Origin: a virus
Taxonomy: Duplodnaviria; Heunggongvirae; Uroviricota; Caudoviricetes
Strand: one strand, 5' to 3'
IMG/VR virus record: IMGVR_UViG_3300005688_000042
DNA length: 64,000 nt
Made by a program: the position numbers and the translations under genes. Of the stretch, positions 8,412 to 58,425 are shown piece after piece. Below the pieces are notes generated by a model that was not told the DNA's origin, ran no database searches, and saw only the letters and a list, made by a program, of their open reading frames with translations. Every line of letters begins with the position of its first letter. Position 1 is the first letter of the stretch.

Positions 8412-8576
8412 AATGTACTAAATAGAATAAAATTGTTTAAGTCGAAGATGTAAAGGTTATCAAGCAAACAGCAGCACGTGGGTTCGAATCCCATCCGGGT
8501 ACTAGAAATAGAACTGGTAGGCAAGTGGTTAGCCAGCCGTCAAAACATCTTTCATTGTTTAACTTACTTGAACATG

Positions 8577-28523: not shown

Positions 28524-28643
28524 GGAAATAATTGTTGTCTCAGCTAAAGAATTAGAAGAATTAGAAGAATTAGAAGAATTAGAAGAATTAGAAGAAATGG
28601 AAAGAATAGCTAGAGAACGTGAATTAAAAGCGTTTGCATAAAG
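28524..28643 (+). CDS. 39-aa micro-ORF containing (EEL)5
   Basis: Hand translation MEIIVVSAKELEELEELEELEELEEMERIARERELKAFA. Confidence 0.25.
28546..28595. repeat. 9-nt tandem repeat (agaattaga)x5
   Basis: Read directly. Confidence 0.7.
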
Positions 28644-29957: not shown

Positions 29958-30004
29958 TTTATTTTATCACATGATATAAATATACAAAATATCATGGATA
30001 ATTT

Positions 30005-31792
30005 ATGTCAACTGTTCTATTAACCGCTGGAAGGACTAAAACACTAACATCGTCAATCATTGTTGGCGAGAACGAAGTGTTACAATTAACCATTTTCAGT
30101 CCTACTGTGAACATTCCGAAGGATATTCCTCTTTTTAGAGTTAAAAGAAAAAATGTTCTCGATATTTACGAATCATTTTACTTAAATGGTGTCGTAGCTA
30201 TGAGTGGTAGTGCATACTCATTAACAATATCATATCCGGGTGAATATAAAATACTTCGCCCAGATATTACTGCTTTTGACATTGATATAGGAATTGAATA
30301 CGATAAATTTTCAGCAGGCGATGCTGGCGCAGTAGGCTGGGATGATATAACAGACAAGCCCGCTACCTTCCCAGCAACAGCGGGTGGCGCAGACACACAG
30401 ATTCAGTTCAACAACGCTGGCGCACTTGCCGGCGACTCAGGGTTTACTTACAACACGACTAACAAGACTGTAGCGCTAGGCGGCGGTGTCCTTACTGCTA
30501 GTAACCCTGTTCTTAATCTTGCGCAGACTTGGAATAACGCTGCGGTTACGTTTGAGGGCATCAAACTCAACGTGACGAATACCGCTAGCGATGTGCTGAG
30601 CAGGTTCGCTACATTTAGTGTGGATGGATCAGATTTTGTCCGCATACTGAGGCGCGGGGCTATCGTATTTCCTACGTCACCCGGAGTGCAAGATCCCGGT
30701 GTTGCTGGCATCGGCAACTACGGAGGTACGCTCACTATGTGGAGCGGCTCCGGGACGCGCATGATCAGTATATCTACTACGGATATAAATGTAGTAAGCG
30801 CTAGTGCGTCTCTATCTTTCAGCACGGGCACAGCTCTTTTCAGGGATGCCGCTGGGATACTTGCGCAACGTAGTGGTGTTACCACCCAAACTTCCCGCAT
30901 TTACAATACCTATACCGATGCCAGCAACTACGAGCGTTTGGCACTCATTCCCGGCGCCACATCCGGTTGGATGCAGATCGCTGCGCAGAGTGCGGGTACT
31001 GGCACCGCTAACATCAACGTCGCACTGACTCCTGCGGGTACAGGCGCTTTGTCTGCGCAGGTTCCGGATAGCACCACGGCGGGTGGTAATGCGCGCGGGA
31101 CGAATGCAGTTGATTGGCAGACAAGCACTCGCACTCTCGCTACGCAGGTCGCTTCCGGCGCATGGGCGACATGCGCAGGGGGATTCAGAAACACTGCCTC
31201 AGGTTCAACTTCTGTCGTCGCTGGCGGTAATACAAACATAGCAGGAGGACAAACTTCTGCTGTTGGTGGTGGGTATGCAAACTTGGCATCTGGTCCGCTG
31301 TCGTGGATTCCCGGAGGATCGACGGCCACTACGCGCCTGCTATATGGCGCAGGCGCGTATAGTGCTGGTCAGCGTGCGGCATTAGGCGACGCGCAGGTTA
31401 TAGTACAGCCAGTCCGCATTACGACCAGCGCAGCATCCGCAACAACGCTCACGGCGGACGGTGGCGCCGAATCCGCCACGAATGTGATGGTGTTGCCAAT
31501 TAACTCTGGCGCAGATTTCGAAGCGCGGGTTGTTGCGGTGCATGCGTCTGGCGCCGCTGCTGGATCGTGGAAGATCGAAGGTACTGCACGCCGGGGAGCT
31601 AGCGGCAATGCAATAATCGTTGGCACTAACACGGTTACTACCAAGGGTTTAGATGCTGCTTTAGGCACACCAACGATCAATGTAGTACCGGCAACGGGTG
31701 CGGGTGCGGGTGCAATCGTAATCCAAGTAACTCCTGCCAACGCAACGACAACTTATTGGGTTGGTCGAGTCGAACTGATTCAAGCAGCATAA
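30005..31792 (+). CDS. tail-fibre / receptor-binding-like protein, Gly/Ala/Thr-rich, GC-rich
   Basis: ITDKPATFPATAGG resembles the tail-fibre KPxTFPP repeat; composition differs strongly from the flanks. Confidence 0.55.
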   Translation: MSTVLLTAGRTKTLTSSIIVGENEVLQLTIFSPTVNIPKDIPLFRVKRKNVLDIYESFYLNGVVAMSGSAYSLTISYPGEYKILRPDITAFDIDIGIEYDKFSAGDAGAVGWDDITDKPATFPATAGGADTQIQFNNAGALAGDSGFTYNTTNKTVALGGGVLTASNPVLNLAQTWNNAAVTFEGIKLNVTNTASDVLSRFATFSVDGSDFVRILRRGAIVFPTSPGVQDPGVAGIGNYGGTLTMWSGSGTRMISISTTDINVVSASASLSFSTGTALFRDAAGILAQRSGVTTQTSRIYNTYTDASNYERLALIPGATSGWMQIAAQSAGTGTANINVALTPAGTGALSAQVPDSTTAGGNARGTNAVDWQTSTRTLATQVASGAWATCAGGFRNTASGSTSVVAGGNTNIAGGQTSAVGGGYANLASGPLSWIPGGSTATTRLLYGAGAYSAGQRAALGDAQVIVQPVRITTSAASATTLTADGGAESATNVMVLPINSGADFEARVVAVHASGAAAGSWKIEGTARRGASGNAIIVGTNTVTTKGLDAALGTPTINVVPATGAGAGAIVIQVTPANATTTYWVGRVELIQAA

Positions 31793-31823
31793 ATATCAAT
31801 TAGACTAATAGGGATATACACAC

Positions 31824-32183
31824 ATGAAAATTACTACGGATGAGTTTGAAGTCGAAGGTTCTTTTGTCGCAAGGCAGACTTATAAAGAACCAACGTCTAC
31901 CAACTCTCACACTTTTGGCCCAAGTGATGTAAACAAGTGCGTAAGGTTTACGGATGCTGGAGCGAACAGCGCTATATTTCCTGACACTTTAACCGCTGGA
32001 ATGGGCGGCTTGATTATGCGAGCCGTTGGAGCTGGGGTCATCACTTGGTCAGTGACGGGATCAATGGTCATAACCCCTGATGCTGCGTCTACTGGACACA
32101 CAGGAAGTGCTGCTGACCCATCATTCCTATGGTGGGAATGTGATGGAACAAACTCCGTGATCATTGGAGGAAGTACAGCGTGA
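31824..32183 (+). CDS. hypothetical protein in the GC-rich fibre module
   Basis: ORF track; GGGATA RBS. Confidence 0.45.
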   Translation: MKITTDEFEVEGSFVARQTYKEPTSTNSHTFGPSDVNKCVRFTDAGANSAIFPDTLTAGMGGLIMRAVGAGVITWSVTGSMVITPDAASTGHTGSAADPSFLWWECDGTNSVIIGGSTA

Positions 32184-32932
32184 TTAAACGCGGCGGCAGG
32201 TTCTTACAACGGTCTAATGGTAGCTTGGACCTATCATCTAATTTAGTTCTTTCACTTGATCTTGAAGAGGTTAGTGGGGACGCTATTGATCAAAGTATTA
32301 GTGAGTATGATTTCATTGATGTGAATACAGTGGAATCCGCCGCCGGAGCAACGCCCGGATACGGGTCACGCTTGTTTACACCAGATAACTCGGAGCATCT
32401 CTATCTGCCAAGTTCAGGAACATCAAATGTAAATATTTTAGATAATGAATGGGCCATGCACTTTTGGGCCAAGCGAAACGCAACTGGCGCCCGCATCATT
32501 TTTGCCAAATCACCGAGTACTGTGGTCGCTACTGCTACCGCAAGAGCATTCATTATTTACTTTTCTTTGTCGACTTTGATCTTTACTGTTGGGAGATCTG
32601 TCGCTGCTGATGGCGCTGTATCGGTTTCTGCTAATGTACCGATGAGTGAATGGATTCCTGTGTTATGTTGGCACGATCCAAATGCAGATGTAATTGGAGT
32701 GAAAATCGGCACGGATGCGGCTGTGACAACCACTTTAGTTGGAGGCGCACGAGCCGGTAGCTCATCTGACGTCAGGATCGGATCGACATCCGTAACCCCC
32801 GGCTCTTATCTTGACGCAAATCTTGCAGCTTTGCGAATCTGGCGAGGCGCTGGTGTCATCAATCAAATAGTCAATCCTGAAGTAATCAATTTTCTAAACG
32901 CAAGACAACGAAGACACACGGAGTTAGTATGA
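32180..32932 (+). CDS. hypothetical protein, possibly lectin/LamG-like jelly-roll (fibre-associated)
   Basis: ORF track; GC-rich; fold assignment is a guess. Confidence 0.35.
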   Translation: MIKRGGRFLQRSNGSLDLSSNLVLSLDLEEVSGDAIDQSISEYDFIDVNTVESAAGATPGYGSRLFTPDNSEHLYLPSSGTSNVNILDNEWAMHFWAKRNATGARIIFAKSPSTVVATATARAFIIYFSLSTLIFTVGRSVAADGAVSVSANVPMSEWIPVLCWHDPNADVIGVKIGTDAAVTTTLVGGARAGSSSDVRIGSTSVTPGSYLDANLAALRIWRGAGVINQIVNPEVINFLNARQRRHTELV

Positions 32933-33435
32933 AAATAGTAAACACAATAACTGGCGGTAGAACTACGCTGCAACAATTACTTCGAACGTTTCCACGTATC
33001 GGATCAGTAGCAAATCCCGCGCAAGGCATCCGCACAGTCTGGGATAATCCCCCAACCGATGAGCAGTTAGCGGCGGTAGGCTATCAATATGTTTTGGAAG
33101 TAGACCCTCCAGAATTTGGACCTGATGAACAATTGAGCAATGGACCAGATGCCCTAATAAATGGCAGATGGACCCAGACATGGGTTGTCGAAGAACTTGC
33201 CGTGCCAGAGGAAGTGGACACTATAGCATTCAAATTGACATTACATGATCTCAATCTACTTCCCTCTGTGCAGGGTTATGTAGATACGCTTTCTCCGGTG
33301 GAACAAATCTATTGGCAACACAGATCAACGATACGTCGCGATTCTGATTTTATTGAGTCGGGAAGAATCGCCCTTGGATTAACTCAGGAACAAGTTGATG
33401 ACTTGTTTCATGCCGCTAAAGCCAGAGCAGTGTGA
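32929..33435 (+). CDS. hypothetical protein (fibre module)
   Basis: ORF track. Confidence 0.45.
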   Translation: MKIVNTITGGRTTLQQLLRTFPRIGSVANPAQGIRTVWDNPPTDEQLAAVGYQYVLEVDPPEFGPDEQLSNGPDALINGRWTQTWVVEELAVPEEVDTIAFKLTLHDLNLLPSVQGYVDTLSPVEQIYWQHRSTIRRDSDFIESGRIALGLTQEQVDDLFHAAKARAV

Positions 33436-33495
33436 TATGATTAGGTTGGTCGCCTTGAATTGATAAATACCTTTATAAACTAAATAGGAATAAAA

Positions 33496-33888
33496 ATGAC
33501 AATTACGGTTACTTTAACAAATAACAGACACATAGCTGGCGCAAATGCGGCTTATATGATGACAATCCCTGAAGATGGAGATTCACCGTACCAATCTGTA
33601 CAGGAATATGTACAAAATGCAATCGAACGTGTAGCTGAATCATGGGCTGACTCAGCGAAGGTTGATCAAATTTCAGTATTTGAGTTTGTTGAACGTATTG
33701 GCGCGGAGCGATTCGCCGCGATAACAGCAGCGGCACCGAACGACCCTATCATCGCAGAAATGTTGGTCACGCTTCGCGCCCGACAGACCGTGAGATTAGG
33801 ATCGCCAGATGCAATCAATGGTATTGCATACCTCGTCAGTGTTGGTCTATTGACACAGCAACAAGCTGACACCGCGTTGGCGTATTGA
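33496..33888 (+). CDS. hypothetical protein (fibre module)
   Basis: ORF track; AGGAATAAAA RBS. Confidence 0.45.
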   Translation: MTITVTLTNNRHIAGANAAYMMTIPEDGDSPYQSVQEYVQNAIERVAESWADSAKVDQISVFEFVERIGAERFAAITAAAPNDPIIAEMLVTLRARQTVRLGSPDAINGIAYLVSVGLLTQQQADTALAY

Positions 33889-44605: not shown

Positions 44606-45241
44606 TTATGAAACGTCTTTGATGCTGAAGGCGGGGTCAGTGAAGACTAATTGGATACCAACAGGAGACAAACGAACCATAATATTTTTAGCTGCAATAT
44701 CTTCTCTGAAATGAGGATTAGAATCTATGAAGTCATGTATTATTGTAACAGCCTCTTTCCAACTTTCTAATTTTATATTCTTAGGTTTTTGCAATGCAAA
44801 CACCAATGATGAAACCCTATTTTGTAGTCCCAAATGTGGACTATTAGGAATATTACTAACCTGATCATTAAGATATAACTCGGTGACATTATTAATTCGT
44901 TCATCTGATTCTTCATTATTAGTCGCATCATAAATCAGATATTCTTGAAGCGTTTTGTGAAGCTTTTCCATTTCCCAATGCTTTCCGCCAGCGGAAACGT
45001 AGATTCGAGGAAAATGTGGATTGCGCTGTGCAAGTTTATTCTTCATTAAGAAGTCTGCATAGGCATTATACGCACTATCATGATAGTCAGCAGTTTTGAT
45101 TACAGTATGAGGGTCATCTTTATTATTGAACACAGTAGAAAAATGTCCACCGCCAGTTTCGCTGCCAGTATTAACTTTTGGGACATCTTTTAGTTGTTGC
45201 TGATCGAATACTTCAATAAGTTTCATTCCATTGTCTCCCAA
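44606..45241 (-). CDS. hypothetical protein, tandem paralogue of 45223..45813
   Basis: Shared AYNAYADFLMKNKLAQRNPHFPRIY...W.MEKL. Confidence 0.5.
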   Translation of the reverse strand: MGDNGMKLIEVFDQQQLKDVPKVNTGSETGGGHFSTVFNNKDDPHTVIKTADYHDSAYNAYADFLMKNKLAQRNPHFPRIYVSAGGKHWEMEKLHKTLQEYLIYDATNNEESDERINNVTELYLNDQVSNIPNSPHLGLQNRVSSLVFALQKPKNIKLESWKEAVTIIHDFIDSNPHFREDIAAKNIMVRLSPVGIQLVFTDPAFSIKDVS

Positions 45242-45813
45242 GGATCTGTAATAACTAATTGTGGTCCTTGTGGGGTCAAACGAACCATGATGTTATTAGC
45301 GTGCAAATCATATCTAAATTTGTTAGATTTTCGCAATGATAGGAATTCTTGTTCTATCATTCCTAAAGCTTTTTTGTATGATTCAAGTTTAATTGGCGAA
45401 GATGCAGATTTTACCAAATCATATAGTTTACCTTTATCATTTAAAGCTGCACCATCAAAGTAAATATTATTTATTAGATTAAATCGGTGTGTATTCTCTT
45501 CATGATCGTCGGTATTAAGGTATTCTTCTAATGTAAAGGGTAATTTTTCCATCTTCCATTTCTTACCACGTTGAATTTGATAAATGCGAGGAAAGTGTGG
45601 GTTGGATTGGGCTAATTTGTTGTTAACATATGCATCATACGCGGGGTCTTCGTCTATACCCTTGTTTACTTTATTGATCATGAATGGATCTTCGTCACCC
45701 TTTACGGCTGCGAAAAAACCAGAGCCTTTAACCTCTGGGTCTTCTTTAGATGAATCTGGGAAAGTATCCGCTACCTCTTGATCAAATGCCTCGCACAACT
45801 GTTTTAGTTTCAT
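45223..45813 (-). CDS. hypothetical protein (tandem paralogue)
   Basis: See previous. Confidence 0.5.
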   Translation of the reverse strand: MKLKQLCEAFDQEVADTFPDSSKEDPEVKGSGFFAAVKGDEDPFMINKVNKGIDEDPAYDAYVNNKLAQSNPHFPRIYQIQRGKKWKMEKLPFTLEEYLNTDDHEENTHRFNLINNIYFDGAALNDKGKLYDLVKSASSPIKLESYKKALGMIEQEFLSLRKSNKFRYDLHANNIMVRLTPQGPQLVITDPWETME

Positions 45814-45870
45814 ATTTTCAATAGATTATTACTTATTATTTATGTAAAACATTTGTCACGAATATCTATT

Positions 45871-46017
45871 TCATTTTGGAATTTCCGTCAAAACAAGTTG
45901 TTTGCCAATAGTATTCGTAATTTTATATTTTTTACCATTAATGTTATAAATCTTACTACGAATGTACCGATCATATTCATGTGGTAAATATTTCTCATAA
46001 AATTTATGTTCACTCAT
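45871..46017 (-). CDS. small hypothetical protein (48 aa)
   Basis: Hand translation MSEHKFYEKYLPHEYDRYIRSK...; 4 nt after the upstream stop. Confidence 0.3.
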   Translation of the reverse strand: MSEHKFYEKYLPHEYDRYIRSKIYNINGKKYKITNTIGKQLVLTEIPK

Positions 46018-46021
46018 TGAC

Positions 46022-46357
46022 TTACCATTTACATGTTGTTCCATCGCGATAATAGCTAATTAAAGGTGGGAGATCATTATCTCTGAATATTTTACCATCC
46101 ATGTGATACACTTGTGACTTGATCGTGCCATCATCATGGAATAAAATATCGGATGGATCACCATTGCCATGTAGAATTTGATGCGAGGGATCTTTGTATG
46201 ATTTAACCGAATGCAGTACACCCCCACATTTTTCTTCAACAACGTATAGTCCGTTAATAAGTCCCTTGTCTATTTTTGTAATCATGTAAAGTAAGTTCAT
46301 GTTCATATTTGTTCCGTGGTAGTTTAGATAGGAAGATTGTACCATGCTTGCACACAT
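46022..46357 (-). CDS. hypothetical protein with MORN-like G/Y repeats
   Basis: YHMDGKIFRDND, YYRDGTT motifs. Confidence 0.4.
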   Translation of the reverse strand: MCASMVQSSYLNYHGTNMNMNLLYMITKIDKGLINGLYVVEEKCGGVLHSVKSYKDPSHQILHGNGDPSDILFHDDGTIKSQVYHMDGKIFRDNDLPPLISYYRDGTTCKW

Positions 46358-46714
46358 AACGAAAGTGGGGTAACATGTGAAAACAAATTAAGGAAACAGA
46401 TGATGATCCAAAGATATAAACCAGTAACTTTTCATGGAATGTATGACAATGATGTTGGGGGATATGTAAGATACGAAGATTATGTTAAAGAGTTAAACAA
46501 ATACAAACCAACTGAAAAAGATCCGTTCTCTGTCAAGTACGAACATCCAAGTGCGAAGGGATACATCATGAAGTATGCAAGTAATTATGGCGAAATGTTA
46601 AGGCTTGTAAATGATTTAAGAAAGGTTGATGGCATCTCTAACATCAGAGTGTTTGCGATGACTGAGCTAGACATAATGGAAACTGTAGTCATTAATGTTA
46701 AACCACCAGAATAA
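46337..46714 (+). CDS. hypothetical protein, member of a 3-gene paralogue family
   Basis: C-terminus ISNIRVFAMTELDIMETVVINV; compare 46740 and 48836. Confidence 0.45.
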   Translation: MYHACTHNESGVTCENKLRKQMMIQRYKPVTFHGMYDNDVGGYVRYEDYVKELNKYKPTEKDPFSVKYEHPSAKGYIMKYASNYGEMLRLVNDLRKVDGISNIRVFAMTELDIMETVVINVKPPE

Positions 46715-46739
46715 AAAATAGAACTCATTATATTACACG

Positions 46740-47117
46740 GTGAAAAAAATGACAATTAATAAATTTAGTCCAGTACAAGGTATGTTTGAACATAGTGATG
46801 GTGATTTCATGAGGGTCGTCGATCATCAAGATGAAGTGTTACGACTTAAAGGAATCATTAATTCATTGTATGATCAATTGAGTGAGATAAGTTCTCTGAA
46901 AGATACAGTTGAAAAACTCAAACCGAGTATGAATTCAAGCTTTGTAGTTAAATATAGGGAAGAAGGAACATATAAAGAGCATATAAAATATCATAGATGG
47001 TTTAACCATGCGGTTAAGCACATAAACGAATTACAAAAAGATCCAAATGTTTTTAGTATTAGAGCATTTGCATTGACAGAGGTTCCTATTGTAGACTCAT
47101 TGACAATACAACTATAA
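46740..47117 (+). CDS. hypothetical protein (paralogue)
   Basis: FSIRAFALTEVPIVDSLTIQL. Confidence 0.45.
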   Translation: MKKMTINKFSPVQGMFEHSDGDFMRVVDHQDEVLRLKGIINSLYDQLSEISSLKDTVEKLKPSMNSSFVVKYREEGTYKEHIKYHRWFNHAVKHINELQKDPNVFSIRAFALTEVPIVDSLTIQL

Positions 47118-47314
47118 TTACAAAAACGTAATTTTATTTTTGATATGTAACCAATATAGGATAGAATGAAATGGTTGTGAAAAAGTCCACACCAATGATT
47201 TATAGAAGTGACAAAACCAAAAACGTAAATCTATTTTTGACCTAATTACAAAGTATGTTGTAGGAAACATTGTCACCAGAAAAGCCACACCAATGGTTTA
47301 GAATGACCATAGAG

Positions 47315-47346
47315 GCTAAATGCTAACGCAAGCGTTAGCATTTAGC
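47315..47346. repeat. perfect 15-bp inverted repeat hairpin GCTAAATGCTAACGC-aa-GCGTTAGCATTTAGC
   Basis: Read directly. Confidence 0.7.
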
Positions 47347-47527
47347 CTGTGGAAGGGGTTAGGGGATGGTGAATTTGACCATATTATGGGCTAAAATGTC
47401 AATGTTACTGGGGAATAATTTTGGCAAGATTTTTGAAGAGATGGTAATATGAGTACAGATAACGGGCCAAAAGTAGCGTAAGTGACTGTTTTAAAGCAGT
47501 TTTTTGAAATTTTGAGTCGAAGTGTGG

Positions 47528-47535
47528 TATAAATA
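47528..47535 (+). promoter_or_regulatory. T4-type late promoter TATAAATA (a second variant CATAAATAC lies 35 nt downstream)
   Basis: Read directly. Confidence 0.4.
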
Positions 47536-47606
47536 CAACAAAGATTATTTTAAGAATGTTGCATAAATACAACAAGAATACAGTGAGAACGATTGTTTTT
47601 TAATTG

Positions 47607-47614
47607 TATAAATA
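47607..47614 (+). promoter_or_regulatory. T4-type late promoter TATAAATA
   Basis: Read directly. Confidence 0.4.
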
Positions 47615-48236
47615 ATAGTATAAGTATATGATAATAAAGAATAATTTGAATTATTTTTGAATTATGGTAAAGATTATTGATGCGATAGTATTATGAGGAA
47701 TCTAAGGGAAAAAAATTCGTATACTTCACATAAAAAACCCTTATAAATCAAGCACTTACGTAACTTTTTTAAAGTATTTTCTTATAATTTTATCCCACCG
47801 TAGCCGCCAAAACGGTCCAAAAAACCCTCTAGTATAGCATAATTCCCACCCTCTTGTCAAGCGTTTTTCGCAACTTTTTGCGAGATTTTACAATTACTTT
47901 TCCCTTTAGAATCAATGACTTACGATTTTCTTTACAAATGATACCCTCCTACCATACTTCGACCCTCCTGTCAACCATTTTTCGAAAGATTTACACAAAA
48001 TTTACTTTATAAATCAACAACTTATAGGTAAATCTTGCGCCAACCACATGATAGCAAATAGTTATATACCATGTCAAGTGCCATTTTATATTATTTTGTT
48101 CAGCTATCGTTCAGGTATGGTATGTTAAAATAGGGTGGAGGTTGGGAGAATAGGGTTAAATTCTCATCAAAGCGTGATATTGTGATTGCACAATTCACGC
48201 TTCGCGTGATACAATGAGCAAACGAAGGAGATTTTT

Positions 48237-48449
48237 ATGTTGAATGATCTTGTGGATAGTGTGAAAAGGGAAATTATGGACCATTGGAGGATTGAAACAG
48301 CCCTTAAAAATGGTTTCCTAGAGGATGTAGAGGGTGCTATACGCGAAGCGATCATCCGTGGTATCACCTATGGGGGTATGGATCAGGGTATTTTTAAGGA
48401 AGCTTTGACAGTTTGTGAAGAAATGGATAAGGAAACAGACAACATATAA
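48237..48449 (+). CDS. hypothetical protein
   Basis: ORF track; AAGGAG RBS. Confidence 0.5.
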   Translation: MLNDLVDSVKREIMDHWRIETALKNGFLEDVEGAIREAIIRGITYGGMDQGIFKEALTVCEEMDKETDNI

Positions 48450-48835
48450 ACTTAAAAAGTGGTAAAAAGTGGGAATTTCATTGTAAATTTGATCTAATCA
48501 TTAGGGTCTGAGGGTATCCAGCAAAGACTTTTTTGTTTCAAAAGTGGTAAAAAGTGGTTTTTTGGCTGTTTTGTTCATGATTTGTTCAGGTACGGTGTGT
48601 TAAAATGGGTGCGTGGTCGGGGGAACCGTGGCTCGAAATTGATAAGTGCTTGATTTATAAGGGTTTTGTACATTAGCATTTCCTAATGTATTCACTTTGG
48701 GGGTAGTAAACATAGACTTTTTTGTGGTAGGAACGTGCGCACGATCATATGATGGTCCACAGAGCACAAAGTTGTTGCATGTTAGCCTTAGAGCATGTAT
48801 AGTTATGGTCACTGAATGGACTTGGAGTTATAAAC

Positions 48836-49195
48836 ATGACTATTAAACGATACCGATATGATCCGAATGAAGAGTGCTTCAATGAGCATGAAAGGGGTAA
48901 CGTAGTCTTCTGGGCTGATCATCAGGAGATTGTGGATAGACATGAAAGGACCGTAGAAGGTCTCAGGGAGACCATTAAGATTAGTAATGATCGTTTGAAG
49001 CCTAGTAAGCAACATATGTACCTTGTTCAATGGTGGATTGGTCCACATGATCCTATCATGGCAGTCAAACACTATGATGCGCTGGAAGACTTTCTAAGCA
49101 ATCTGGCCGAGAATAGTTCTATTAATGATATCAGTGTATGTGCATTACATCCAGTCAAGGTAACTACAAAGAAAGTGTTGACAGTCGAACTTTGA
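48836..49195 (+). CDS. hypothetical protein (third paralogue of the 46337 family)
   Basis: C-terminus INDISVCALHPVKVTTKKVLTVEL. Confidence 0.45.
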   Translation: MTIKRYRYDPNEECFNEHERGNVVFWADHQEIVDRHERTVEGLRETIKISNDRLKPSKQHMYLVQWWIGPHDPIMAVKHYDALEDFLSNLAENSSINDISVCALHPVKVTTKKVLTVEL

Positions 49196-52156: not shown

Positions 52157-52735
52157 ATGAAACTTCGACAATGGGCAAATAAACAAGGGATTTCCTACTT
52201 GACAGCGCTTCGCTGGTTCAAGGCAGGTAAAATTCCAAATTCAACTCAATTCCCATCTGGCACCATCATAATACAAGATGAGCTGCCTGTCAACACGGAT
52301 GAAAATAAATCAGTACATATCTATGCCAGAGTTTCTTCACATGAGAAGAAAGATGATCTAACCAGACAAGCCCAAAGATGTGTTGAATTTGCTAATGCCA
52401 ATGGATACGAAATAATCTCAGTTACAAAAGAAATTGCTTCTGGCATGAATGATAAGCGACCAAAATTAATTAAATTGATTGAACAGAAACCAAAACATAT
52501 CATTGTTGAGCACAAGGACAGATTGACCAGATTTGGATTCAATTACTTTGATTTATTACTTCCTATGATTGGTTGTAAATTAACTGTTATGAATAGAGAT
52601 CAAGAAGAGCATGCGGATTTAATGAAAGATTTAGTTTCTGTTATTACATCATTTTGTTGTAAATTATATGGTCTGCGCAGAGCGCAGAACAAGAAACAAA
52701 AGATCCAACAAATATTGGAAGACGAAAATGTTTAA
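52157..52735 (+). CDS. tnpA: IS607-type TnpA serine recombinase with MerR-like HTH
   Basis: NKQGISYLTALRWF HTH; IYARVSS...RQ. Confidence 0.7.
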   Translation: MKLRQWANKQGISYLTALRWFKAGKIPNSTQFPSGTIIIQDELPVNTDENKSVHIYARVSSHEKKDDLTRQAQRCVEFANANGYEIISVTKEIASGMNDKRPKLIKLIEQKPKHIIVEHKDRLTRFGFNYFDLLLPMIGCKLTVMNRDQEEHADLMKDLVSVITSFCCKLYGLRRAQNKKQKIQQILEDENV

Positions 52736-58352: not shown

Positions 58353-58425
58353 GCCTCGGTAGCTTAGTGGCCTAAAGCGACTTTCTCTAAAATTGTGATC
58401 GTGAGTTCAAATCTCACCCGAGGCG
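58353..58425 (+). tRNA. tRNA with anticodon CUA (amber-suppressor-like); anticodon stem has two U-U mismatches
   Basis: Acceptor GCCTCGG/CCGAGGC disc G, D GCTT/AAGC, loop cuCUAaa, T-arm GTGAG-TTCAAAT-CTCAC; alternative registers pair worse. Confidence 0.4.

Follow-up and report, generated by a model that had tools for sequence, protein, structure and literature searches.

Extent, Coding Status, and Conservation of the Hub

The window analyzed here is a 64-kb stretch from the ~307-kb genome of an uncultured jumbo phage. Its longest stretch without an ORF of at least 75 aa runs from 47118 to 48808, in agreement with the sequence-only reading, which had called the region ORF-free; the features listed there were all recovered at or near their positions. 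The core of the region (47211–48236, ~1 kb), hereafter the hub, has no coding capacity: neither code 11 nor reassignment of each stop codon in turn gave an ORF that spans it or accounts for its conservation. The features of the hub and its surroundings are collected in Table 1.

Nucleotide identity in the hub was 78–89% across seven related metagenomic phage lineages. For L042, L048, and L045 it was 89%, 80%, and 78%, respectively, compared with 81%, 80%, and 79% for the GP88 gene and 74%, 60%, and 65% for the adjacent gene g48836. The hub is therefore conserved at the level of the best-conserved neighboring gene and far above g48836 (60–74%). Across four to seven lineages, 558 of its 1026 positions (54%) were invariant. 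The hub is under strong purifying selection, and the earlier suggestion that such a region might turn out to be poorly conserved junk in relatives does not apply to it. The conservation is promoter-shaped, with invariant blocks at predicted leftward and rightward promoters, tandem boxes, short palindromes, an 84% A+T segment, and copies of an IHF-type motif. Since 54% invariance over 1 kb is denser than in most phage promoter regions, a further cis function is plausible.

Synteny with the relatives places the hub at the switch between leftward and rightward gene clusters. In L048, it lies directly between a leftward cluster, which contains a MORN-like gene and two T7 gp0.7-like kinase paralogues and is orthologous to 44606–46285 of the window, and rightward genes. 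In this phage, two rightward genes (46400–47117) lie between the hub and the leftward cluster, so leftward transcripts would cross them in antisense. No terminators were found in the hub region. INPHARED DNA searches in near and distant modes gave no match, IMG/VR searches with three flanking proteins gave no relatives, and the GP88-based IMG/VR loci (L007–L041) showed no synteny or DNA similarity to the hub.

Table 1. Features in and around the hub, with positions in the window. Promoters are predictions from consensus.
Feature	Position	Strand	Description
Left-end duplicate, copy 1	47121–47217		~97 bp, lineage-specific; directly after the stop codon of rightward gene 46749–47117
Left boundary block	47212–47237		CAAAACCAAAAACGTAAATCTATTTT; invariant in 4/4 lineages reaching it
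Palindrome cluster	47280–47382		Invariant block AAAAGCCACACCAATGGT, two dyads, one palindrome
Predicted extended −10 promoter	47421–47450	+	TTGGCA-N18-TAATAT, TGg before −10
Three tandem phage-type boxes	47523–47614	+	TATAAATA 47528, CATAAATA 47562, TATAAATA 47607
A+T-rich segment	47596–47695		84% A+T, easily melted; contains invariant GAATTATTTTTGAATTWTGGTA and M0
M0, weak M-type site	47620–47640	reverse	Inside the A+T-rich segment
M1, IHF-consensus-type site	47739–47759	+	AAAAAA-CCCTTATA-AATCAA-GCAC-TTA; arm 1 of inverted repeat
P1, predicted sigma70 promoter	47831–47860	−	TTGACA 47860–47855, 18-nt spacer ending TGc, TATACT 47836–47831
M2, IHF-consensus-type site	47903–47923	+	CCTTTAGAATCAATGACTTAC; 19 nt invariant in 7/7 lineages
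P2, weaker promoter-like unit	47947–47974	−	Invariant TTGACAGGAKGGT, poor −10 (TAGGAG); within direct repeat 2
M3, IHF-consensus-type site	48005–48025	+	CTTTATAAATCAACAACTTAT
P3, predicted sigma70 promoter	48048–48077	−	TTGACA 48077–48072, 18-nt spacer ending TGc, TATCAT 48053–48048
Predicted extended −10 promoter, D1 copy 1	48094–48131	+	TGtTAAAAT 48123–48131, after two GTTCAG repeats
Small-gene promoter and Shine-Dalgarno	48187–48236	+	TGaTACAAT, −10 at 48210–48215
70-aa gene	48237–48449	+	Shine-Dalgarno; always linked to the hub
Two copies of AAAAGTGGTAAAAAGTGG (four AAAAGTGG units)	48452–48557	+	Intergenic, repeat family D5
Extended −10 promoter module D1, copy 2	48569–48606	+	TGtTAAAAT 48598–48606
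M4, inverted near-identical M1 copy	48642–48662	−	Arm 2 of inverted repeat; this phage lineage only
Predicted promoter of gene 48836–49195	48775–48803	+	TTGCAT, 17-nt spacer, TATAGT

Left End and Palindromes

The genes to the left of the boundary block vary by lineage, and the similarity of the relatives to the window starts at 47211/47212. Relatives carry a single copy of the left-end ~97 bp, which is tandemly duplicated in the window (47121–47217 and 47218–47315, 81% identical). The two copies of CCACACCAATG noticed earlier are present as part of this duplication, but on their own they are not above chance (22 of 100 shuffles).

In the palindrome cluster, ATGGT-N7/8-ACCAT dyads at 47294–47311 and 47366–47382 lie on either side of a palindrome at 47313–47348. 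This palindrome is perfect, as had been described, but its arms measure 17 nt (47313–47329 and 47332–47348, 100%) and not 15 nt. Relatives keep only the inner CTAACGC-NN-GCGTTAG. The hairpin is not followed by a T-run on either strand and no terminator was called. The elements of this cluster look like operators.

Predicted Leftward and Rightward Promoters

All promoters are predictions from consensus matches; a simple promoter scan of the region gave 17 hits against 11.7 ± 3.4 in shuffles, a modest excess. On the minus strand, predicted promoters P1 and P3 each scored 11 of 12 against the consensus and carry the TGc. The combined pattern TTGACA-N14-15-TGNTAT occurs three times in 64 kb (0.11 expected), with two of the three occurrences in the hub. 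In the seven-lineage alignment, the P1 and P3 hexamers are invariant or swapped for other good −10 hexamers while the spacers vary, as expected of sigma70-type promoters. For P1, the −35 and the TGC are conserved, the spacer varies, and the −10 in relatives is TATAAT or TAAACT; phased A-tracts lie upstream. For P3, the blocks ATGATAGCAAAT and ATGTCAAGTGCCAT are invariant in all seven lineages. In L048, the leader after P1 would measure ~650 nt, a considerable length if the hub were simply a promoter region. The two ~70-nt direct repeats reported for this part of the hub are real but loose (68% identity), and copy 2 is ~12 nt shorter than copy 1 between two conserved landmarks.

On the plus strand, every lineage retains the TGnTAnnAT extended −10 elements at 47442, 48123, 48207, and 48598, even where 32 nt are deleted; window-wide, the pattern shows a modest excess (44 vs 30). 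The first of these predicted promoters is conserved as TTTTGGYAAGATTTTTG...GATGKTAWTAT in five of five lineages, and the one at copy 1 of the 57-nt repeat D1 in seven of seven. In the small-gene promoter, TACAATGAGCAAAC is invariant and the extended −10 survives the 32-nt deletion in L048 and L060. Both hexamers of the predicted g48836 promoter are kept in L042 and L044.

The ORF behind the small-gene promoter is a real gene, with a Shine-Dalgarno sequence, third-position substitution bias, and 79–92% amino acid identity in relatives. Its 70-aa product is predicted to be helical and had no Pfam or PHROG match; the AlphaFold model (mean pLDDT 63.6) was too poor for a fold search. The intergenic region that follows contains a 38-nt block that is invariant in a three-way alignment.

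The three TATAAATA-type boxes of the sequence-only reading are present, all on the plus strand. The window has 17 copies of [T/C]ATAAATA where 9.0 would be expected, and outside the hub at least 13 of them stand 20–35 nt upstream of start codons; these counts and positions mark it as a genuine promoter-type motif. In the hub, all three copies are conserved among relatives, those at 47528 and 47562 sit within 18-nt units TGTKGYATAAATACMACA, and the next plus-strand gene lies ~630 nt downstream, with none nearer. The motif was also seen ahead of tRNA-like, TnpB, and resolvase genes.

IHF-Consensus-Type Sites

A 20-nt motif, M, composed of an A-tract, 8 nt, and WATCAA-N4-TTR, is present in three to five copies in the hub. 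Its core WATCAANNNNTTR, matched by M1, M2, M3, and M4, has 18 matches in the window against 9.3 expected, four of them within 930 bp; for the extended motif there are six matches against 0.57 expected, five of them in the hub. The A-tract lies ~8 nt upstream of the core. M1 and M4 read AAAAAA-N8-AATCAA, and the flanks of M2 and M3 are mixed A/T-rich. M1 is conserved in seven of seven lineages, as is M2, and M3 is found in the window and L042 and is degenerate or deleted in the other lineages. The center of M2 is ~89 bp upstream of the inferred P1 start. The M core and the −35 are 55 nt apart in repeat 1 and 43 nt apart in repeat 2, and L056 has a 31-nt insertion between M2 and P1. These spacing differences correspond to ~1 and ~3 helical turns, so the phasing between M and promoter is preserved. 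By consensus, the M sites are candidate IHF sites, at which IHF would bind. Searches with approximate query sequences found no HU/IHF/TF1 homologues encoded in the window.

The "convergent late-promoter-like boxes" of the sequence-only reading were a misreading of this motif. The TATAAATC strings are the A/T-rich half of M, the best-conserved copy of which reads TTTAGAATC and not TATAAATC, and the genuine late-type boxes are the three at 47528–47614. Two promoter readings of M itself, as a phage single-subunit RNA-polymerase promoter and as a T4-late variant, were dropped: M is also present in bacterial chromosomes by tRNA genes and DnaA boxes, the best-conserved copy has no TATAAAT, and the orientation to downstream genes is inconsistent.

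Proposed Function and Alternative Explanations

Gene-like conservation, predicted promoters on both strands, and candidate sites for a DNA-bending protein make transcription control the most likely function of this DNA, rather than an invertible segment. We consider that the hub is probably a non-coding divergent early/late promoter hub at the point where leftward and rightward gene clusters diverge. A regulatory hub had been one of several options named before, and it is supported by the strong conservation, the strand-switch position, and invariant blocks that correspond to promoter hexamers with variable spacers.

The transcription starts, their timing, and the interference mechanism that we infer would be as follows. 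Early in infection, host sigma70-type RNA polymerase would start leftward at the tandem P3, P2, and P1, of which P1 and P2 each stand behind an IHF-type bend site and phased A-tracts. The host polymerase would also start rightward at several extended −10 promoters, towards the 70-aa gene, g48836, and the genes beyond. Later, the three tandem plus-strand phage promoters of the [T/C]ATAAATA type would fire rightward across the leftward promoters. The late boxes would thereby give late expression of the rightward genes, and the resulting antisense transcription and polymerase collision would silence early transcription from the leftward promoters. The palindromes and the short motifs that recur in the hub may serve as operators for regulators.

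Among the other explanations, a hidden protein gene with a reassigned stop codon deserves practically no weight. A CUA-anticodon suppressor tRNA (anticodon CTA) at 58353–58425 would suit it, but the recoded frames (TAG, TGA, or TAA as sense) reach at most 178 codons, the longest with TAA as sense, and none spans the conserved blocks. Substitutions in the hub show no 3-nt periodicity, in contrast to the third-position bias in the adjacent 70-aa gene, and the indels among relatives are not multiples of three in length. Hidden coding by stop reassignment was refuted by these frame, periodicity, and indel tests. The hub is also quite unlikely to encode one or more long non-coding RNAs, acting as antisense regulators or decoys through sequence rather than fold. 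The candidates would be a ~500-nt RNA starting leftward at P1 and a ~600-nt RNA running rightward from the late boxes. Promoters on both strands do point into gene-free DNA, conservation continues between the promoter blocks, and the two units overlap by ~500 bp, which would give sense/antisense pairs. However, sliding RNAalifold in 120-nt windows on both strands gave structure conservation indices of at most 0.75 with weak energies and no conserved fold, an Rfam search at permissive E-values returned chance-level matches and no family for the hub, and no terminators delimit discrete RNAs. The variable stretches coincide exactly with the transcribed spacers that separate the promoter and site blocks, which is the opposite of what an RNA product predicts. 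The inverted repeat had been taken to bound the hub and to mark an invertible or foldback segment. It is real, though 28 nt long and not 26 (47731–47758 and 48643–48670, 27 of 28 complementary), and its 21-nt core occurs at only two places in 64 kb (0 of 100 shuffles match). A near-perfect repeat that is unique in the window could form the ends of such a segment, or of a small mobile element carrying 885 bp with the gene 48237–48449, but we regard this as very improbable. The hub is not bounded by this repeat: arm 1 falls midway along the conserved non-coding block, and arm 2 beyond the small gene. Six of six other lineages lack arm 2, although they keep arm 1 and the enclosed sequence; arm 2 is missing at this position in L042 and L044, and no relative has a reverse copy here. 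This phage is represented by six contigs from different samples, which agree at 100% identity over 3.6 kb and share a single orientation. With arm 2 found in this lineage only and all six contigs in one orientation, inversion is unsupported. Moreover, no invertase or transposase is adjacent, the nearest recombinase (52157–52735) being part of an IS607-type TnpA/TnpB unit, and the arms are merely two copies of a motif present five times locally.

That the hub is or contains a transcription-activated replication origin is possible, if doubtful. Transcription from P3–P1 would then run into the A+T-rich segment, M0 and M1 would bend the adjacent DNA, and the 18-nt TGTKGYATAAATACMACA units would be initiator-binding repeats. 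Only one other 100-mer in the 64 kb is less stable than this segment, as suits an unwinding element; the segment is conserved in sequence and not in composition alone, with IHF-type sites within and beside it. Within the window, the extended M motif is confined to the hub locus, as would be expected of a unique cis site more than of a general accessory to promoters. Elsewhere, in an oriC-like region of Noviherbaspirillum, the M 19-mer and clusters of DnaA boxes are ~80 nt apart, and other phage contigs carry 4–6 M copies in ORF-free ends. Against an origin, the cumulative GC skew climbs steadily over 44–52 kb with no inflection or switch, and none of the adjacent genes encodes an initiator, helicase loader, or primase. 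There are just two or three candidate repeats (two 18-nt TGTKGYATAAATACMACA units and a third box; the four AAAAGTGG units at 48452–48557 are another possible set), none of these units could be assigned to an initiator, and the dyad arms show no co-variation. A promoter role accounts fully for the TATAAATA boxes. At other loci, DnaA boxes show no general enrichment around M (0.13 vs 0.10 per kb), and M was rejected as an origin marker for this reason.

Jumbo phages from metagenomes are annotated almost solely by their proteins, and control DNA is left aside. The hub is a non-coding module of 1 kb with precise boundaries, and its rate of evolution is as low as that of core genes. Candidate operators, architectural-protein sites, and promoters of host and phage type can be read directly from its conservation pattern. 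Parts suitable for testing are the M sites, the TATAAATA promoters, and the strong promoters in both directions. The promoter-hub reading predicts that the host possesses IHF. TnpB is uninformative on the host, because its best plasmid and phage matches are ~40% identical and come from several phyla.

Comparison with Known Systems

In the T7 early region, the tandem host-RNAP promoters A1, A2, and A3 drive genes 0.3, 0.7, and 1. The hub similarly has two to three strong consensus sigma70 promoters in tandem, ~100 nt apart in gene-free DNA, and in L048 the leftward promoters face a cluster with gp0.7-like protein-kinase genes. Unlike the T7 region, the hub is bidirectional and internal to a ~307-kb genome, and it adds late-type promoters on the opposite strand, IHF-type sites, and a leader of ~650 nt before the first leftward gene. 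T4-type late promoters (TATAAATA) consist of a −10 alone and are read by gp55-modified host polymerase. Compared by motif alone, the hub octamer is identical, and elsewhere in the window it stands 20–35 nt upstream of start codons with no −35; in the hub, however, the three copies are in tandem with no gene nearby.

IHF-dependent control regions include the Mu Pe/Pc operator region, the lambda pL upstream sites, and the lambda attP H' site. Like the H' site, the hub M sites fit WATCAANNNNTTR with an A-tract 8 nt upstream, and as in the IHF-dependent phage regions they lie ~70–90 bp upstream of sigma70 promoters in a divergent region where indels keep the helical phase. Compared with the E. coli IHF consensus, M is far more constrained (cCCTTTArAATCAAnnACTTAc). 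T4 oriF/oriG and the T7 primary origin combine a promoter with a downstream DNA-unwinding element, and oriC is IHF-assisted. The hub promoters are likewise followed, at 130–230 nt, by a very A+T-rich conserved segment, but the hub lacks a skew signal and is much larger and more complex than these origins.

PeSL cassettes of T4-type phages are promoter-early and stem-loop modules that mediate gene shuffling, and they occur as ~50–100 bp units scattered in hyperplastic regions (PMC2839356, PMC4122927). The hub resembles them in that repeated modules containing promoters adjoin regions where gene content varies: one exact hub boundary is shared by three different left neighbors, a promoter-proximal module has moved between two D1 promoters, and the left end is duplicated. 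In contrast to PeSLs, the hub is one 1-kb composite that is conserved as a whole, with no stem-loop terminators detected.

Recurrence of the M Motif

Exact copies of the M 19-mer are present in hundreds of unrelated contigs, viral as well as bacterial, and this recurrence may matter more widely than the hub itself. Scans of metagenome, genome, and viral collections with the invariant 19-mer returned only unrelated loci bearing the motif and no further relatives of the hub. It is essentially absent from E. coli genomes, and a literature search by sequence strings found nothing relevant. M would thus be a widespread extended binding motif, apparently undescribed.

A bolder proposal, which we consider unlikely as a whole, is that M (cCCTTTArAATCAAnnACTTAc) serves an IHF-like architectural protein as a cis-element across phyla. 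Many unrelated phages would use it in single copies, tandem arrays, and inverted pairs to build nucleoprotein hubs, and Acidobacteriota would bracket tRNA genes with it. In this phage, the five copies would form a 1-kb 'enhanceosome' through which the switch from early to late promoters is coupled to the start of replication at the neighboring unwinding element.

Loci of several kinds were seen in the scans. The 19-mer flanks tRNA genes in Acidobacteriota, stands close to DnaA-box clusters in the Noviherbaspirillum region described above, and forms arrays in the ORF-free ends of other phage contigs. A-runs precede M copies at other phage loci as well.

Conservation and boundaries of the hub

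The hub was compared with six further lineages, which were reached via homologues of two flanking small proteins (L042, L044, L045/46, L048/49/53-55, L056, and L060). In all relatives the left edge of DNA similarity fell at 47211/47212, and from there it extended across the gene-free DNA and into the 70-aa gene at 48237-48449. Hub identity was 89%, 80%, and 78% for L042, L048, and L045, respectively; the corresponding values were 81%, 80%, and 79% for the well conserved GP88 gene and 74%, 60%, and 65% for g48836, the gene at 48836-49195. A total of 558 of the 1026 hub positions were invariant. Substitutions in the hub lacked codon periodicity, and those in the 70-aa gene showed third-position bias. 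These results mark the hub as non-coding DNA under strong purifying selection, and not as the poorly conserved junk that would have refuted the sequence-only reading. The ORF-free stretch seen in that reading is the longest ORF-poor interval in the window. As the phage has a suppressor-type tRNA, stop-codon reassignment was also tested, but with TAG, TGA, or TAA read as sense no frame spanned the hub or accounted for its conservation.

An RNA gene was rejected, as Rfam matches were only at chance level and 120-nt windows on both strands gave a structure conservation index of at most 0.75 with weak consensus energies. No intrinsic terminators were detected in the hub. The 70-aa gene had no family match, and its predicted model had a pLDDT of 63.6.

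In L048, the hub lies directly between a leftward cluster, made up of a MORN-like gene plus a pair of kinase paralogues that match the T7 gp0.7 PHROG, and the rightward 70-aa gene, g48836-like gene, GP88, and rIIA/B. The leftward genes are also present in the window at 44606-46285. Two paralogues there (44606-45813, leftward, 39% identical) hit the PHROG for T7 gp0.7, a protein kinase and host-transcription inhibitor. The MORN-like gene, a single 201-aa gene in L048 (1904-2509), is split in the window into two ORFs of 57 and 87 aa (45871-46285), so it is probably disrupted in this lineage. Between these genes and the hub, the window has two extra rightward g48836 paralogues (46400-47117), along with a second copy of the leftmost 97 bp of the hub. 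Three distant paralogues of one small-protein family (24-28% identical) flank the hub, two of them lineage-specific insertions. In L042 the left neighbour is different again. The hub thus forms a discrete module, fixed at its left edge and variable in what flanks it. A promoter-proximal module (ACATTAGCATTT...) follows the first copy of D1, a 57-nt repeat with an extended -10 promoter, in L042 and the second copy in the window. This shuffling resembles that of the PeSL promoter-terminator cassettes, to which gene shuffling in T4-type phages has been attributed (PMC2839356, PMC4122927).

Contigs of related phages (L042, L045, L046, L049, L054, L055) often stop within the hub or a few hundred nt left of it, and those of L045 and L046, from different runs, share the same end point at position 72. 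The assemblies probably broke at internal repeats or in the variable left flank, but in some relatives the ends may mark a physical genome end.

Candidate promoters and IHF sites

All features listed by the sequence-only reading were found in the sequence, several with revised limits or meaning (see table). The two ~70-nt direct repeats are 68% identical, and in copy 2 the distance from the -35 box to the M core is reduced by ~12 nt. The CCACACCAATG pair is present but not significant by itself; it is part of a ~97-bp tandem duplication (81% identical). The 'TATAAATC boxes' in the arms of the inverted repeat had been taken for late-promoter-like boxes, and are instead copies of the 20-nt motif M.

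Putative regulatory features of the hub (window positions)
Feature	Position	Strand or orientation	Description
M0	47620-47640	reversed	weaker copy of M motif
M1	47739-47759	forward	20-nt M motif
M2	47903-47923	forward	20-nt M motif
M3	48005-48025	forward	20-nt M motif
M4	48642-48662	reversed	20-nt M motif
P1, putative sigma70-type	TTGACA 47860-47855; TATACT 47836-47831	-, leftward	canonical; 18-nt spacer ending TGc
P2, putative third unit		leftward	-35 block kept; -10 weak
P3, putative sigma70-type	TTGACA 48077-48072; TATCAT 48053-48048	-, leftward	canonical; 18-nt spacer ending TGc
Extended -10 elements	47442, 48123, 48207, 48598	+, rightward	TGnTAnnAT; conserved
Putative g48836 promoter	upstream of g48836		TTGCAT-17-TATAGT
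Late-type boxes	47528, 47562 (CATAAATA), 47607	rightward	three tandem [T/C]ATAAATA; conserved
Palindrome	47313-47348		perfect 17-nt arms
Inverted repeat	47731-47758 / 48643-48670		28 nt, 27/28 complementary; single occurrence in window

The pattern TTGACA-N14-15-TGNTAT occurred three times in 64 kb (0.11 expected), two of the three inside the hub. Across lineages the leftward -35 and TGC were invariant, the -10 was exchanged among good hexamers, and the spacer drifted. Phased A-tracts lie upstream of P1. On the other strand, the extended -10 ahead of the 70-aa gene was retained despite a 32-nt deletion in two lineages. The [T/C]ATAAATA octamer has the sequence of the T4 late promoter. In the rest of the window it was over-represented (17 vs 9.0 expected), and at least 13 start codons, among them those of TnpB and resolvase genes, have a copy 20-35 nt upstream, so it is taken as a genuine promoter type of this phage. 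The hub boxes point toward and across P1-P3, and the next ~630 nt are gene-free. Probable operators are the short dyads ATGGT-N7/8-ACCAT (two copies) and CTAACGC-NN-GCGTTAG and the repeated 18-nt units that surround the first two boxes.

All four strong M copies, M1-M4, fit the IHF consensus WATCAANNNNTTR; they make up 4 of the 18 matches in the window and fall within 930 bp. In M1 and M4 an A6 tract lies exactly 8 nt upstream, and an A-tract 8 nt upstream of the core is the architecture of the lambda H' site. M0, M1, and M2 were universal among the lineages and M3 partial. Nineteen nt of M2 were invariant in 7/7 lineages, reading TTTAGAATC, so its conserved function is not that of a TATAAAT promoter. 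From the M core to the -35 the distance is 55 nt for P1 and 43 nt for P2, and in L056 an insertion of 31 nt separates M2 further from P1. These changes in spacing amount to roughly one and three helical turns, which is what a bend held in phase would require.

Function of the hub

Judged from these sequence features, the hub is probably a divergent early/late transcription-control region, which is the best-supported reading. It would resemble a T7 A1-A3 region joined to an IHF-assisted divergent control region such as Mu Pe/Pc. An invertible segment, suggested from the inverted repeat, is contradicted by arm 2 (M4), which was confined to this phage among the compared lineages, by the single orientation seen in all six identical contigs, and by the lack of an adjacent recombinase.

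Origin function, in addition to transcription control or instead of it, is possible though less likely. The segment 47596-47695 is 84% A+T, and only one 100-mer of the window is less stable; its sequence is conserved, and it lies downstream of P1-P3 with M0 and M1 at its sides, as might suit an origin. However, cumulative GC skew, the check proposed for this idea, had no inflection at the hub, and neither initiator repeats nor initiator genes were evident. That the hub yields unstructured regulatory RNAs seems less likely still.

The M motif in other genomes

The invariant 19-mer of M2 (47903-47921, CCTTTAGAATCAATGACTT) was used as an exact query for relatives. It was found in at least 120 metagenome contigs, at least 119 IMG/VR contigs, and 46 reference (GTDB) genome contigs (L061-L345), none otherwise similar to the window. 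The IHF core was enriched 17-fold in these loci, and ~97 further degenerate copies shared cCCTTTArAATCAAnnACTTAc, often preceded by an A-run. Near-exact copies in cultured phages belonged to phages of Proteobacteria. M was essentially absent from E. coli genomes, and a literature search by sequence strings found no description of the extended motif.

Elsewhere M occurs as a single copy upstream of consensus promoters, as inverted pairs whose predicted hairpins precede T-runs, and as tandem arrays of 4-6 direct copies, 40-80 nt apart, in ORF-free DNA of phage contigs (L173 480-1120; L150 330-570). A further repeat family (CTGAGTCGATAGACGWAGCTAT) is present in L173. In 14 of the 46 reference-genome matches, all Acidobacteriota, a tRNA gene lies 1-20 nt from M (L183-L186, L189, L191-L193, L197, L202, L204, L209, L216, L221). 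Several of these (e.g., L184, L191, L192, L202, L204) have a degenerate inverted M on the other side, so that the tRNA, in the cases with both flanks readable, is bracketed by a reversed M before its 5' end and a forward M after its 3' end. As RNA, such a pair would extend the acceptor stem; as DNA, it would place two binding sites around the gene. In Noviherbaspirillum malthae (L208 2455-3000), a ~700-bp gene-free region has two tandem units, each with a DnaA-box-like cluster (TGTGGATAA / TCCACAA) and an M copy ~80 nt on; it resembles a chromosomal origin equipped with IHF sites. Across loci, DnaA boxes had no general association with M.

Other features of the phage

The window, 21% of the genome of this uncultured phage, encodes rIIA/rIIB, a T4-type RNA ligase 1, a GP88-family protein, and three TnpB proteins, one paired with an IS607-type resolvase. 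Its segment 46001-49600 was matched at 100% identity by six metagenomic contigs from different samples, and hub-locus proteins were also found on contigs up to 306,759 bp. The hub locus was absent from cultured phages (DNA search) and from IMG/VR (flanking-protein search).

A TATAAATA promoter box lies 5' of TnpB-containing units and the IS607-type resolvase (21160, 35590, 52127), so these insertion-sequence genes appear wired into the phage transcription programme. Among the ~10 scattered tRNA genes, one at 58353-58425 (called tRNA-Pyl by ARAGORN) has anticodon CTA and would read the amber stop, which hints at stop-codon suppression somewhere in the phage other than the hub. At 8481, 8635, 8853, and 28482, tRNA T-arm strings (GGTTCGAATCC) lie where no tRNA was called, two of them with TATAAATA boxes ahead (8577 and 8694); those in the gene-free stretch at 7.8-9.2 kb may be divergent, interrupted, or decayed tRNA genes. 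An island of ~50% G+C (30000-33500) in this 35% G+C genome contains a 595-aa ORF (30005-31792) that matched nothing in Pfam; the island may have been acquired recently. Two perfect tandem arrays were also present, a 36-nt unit repeated 2.4 times and built on the 12-nt sub-repeat GGTGTCACTGTA (11-95), and the 9-nt unit AAGAATTAG repeated 5.6 times (28547-28596).
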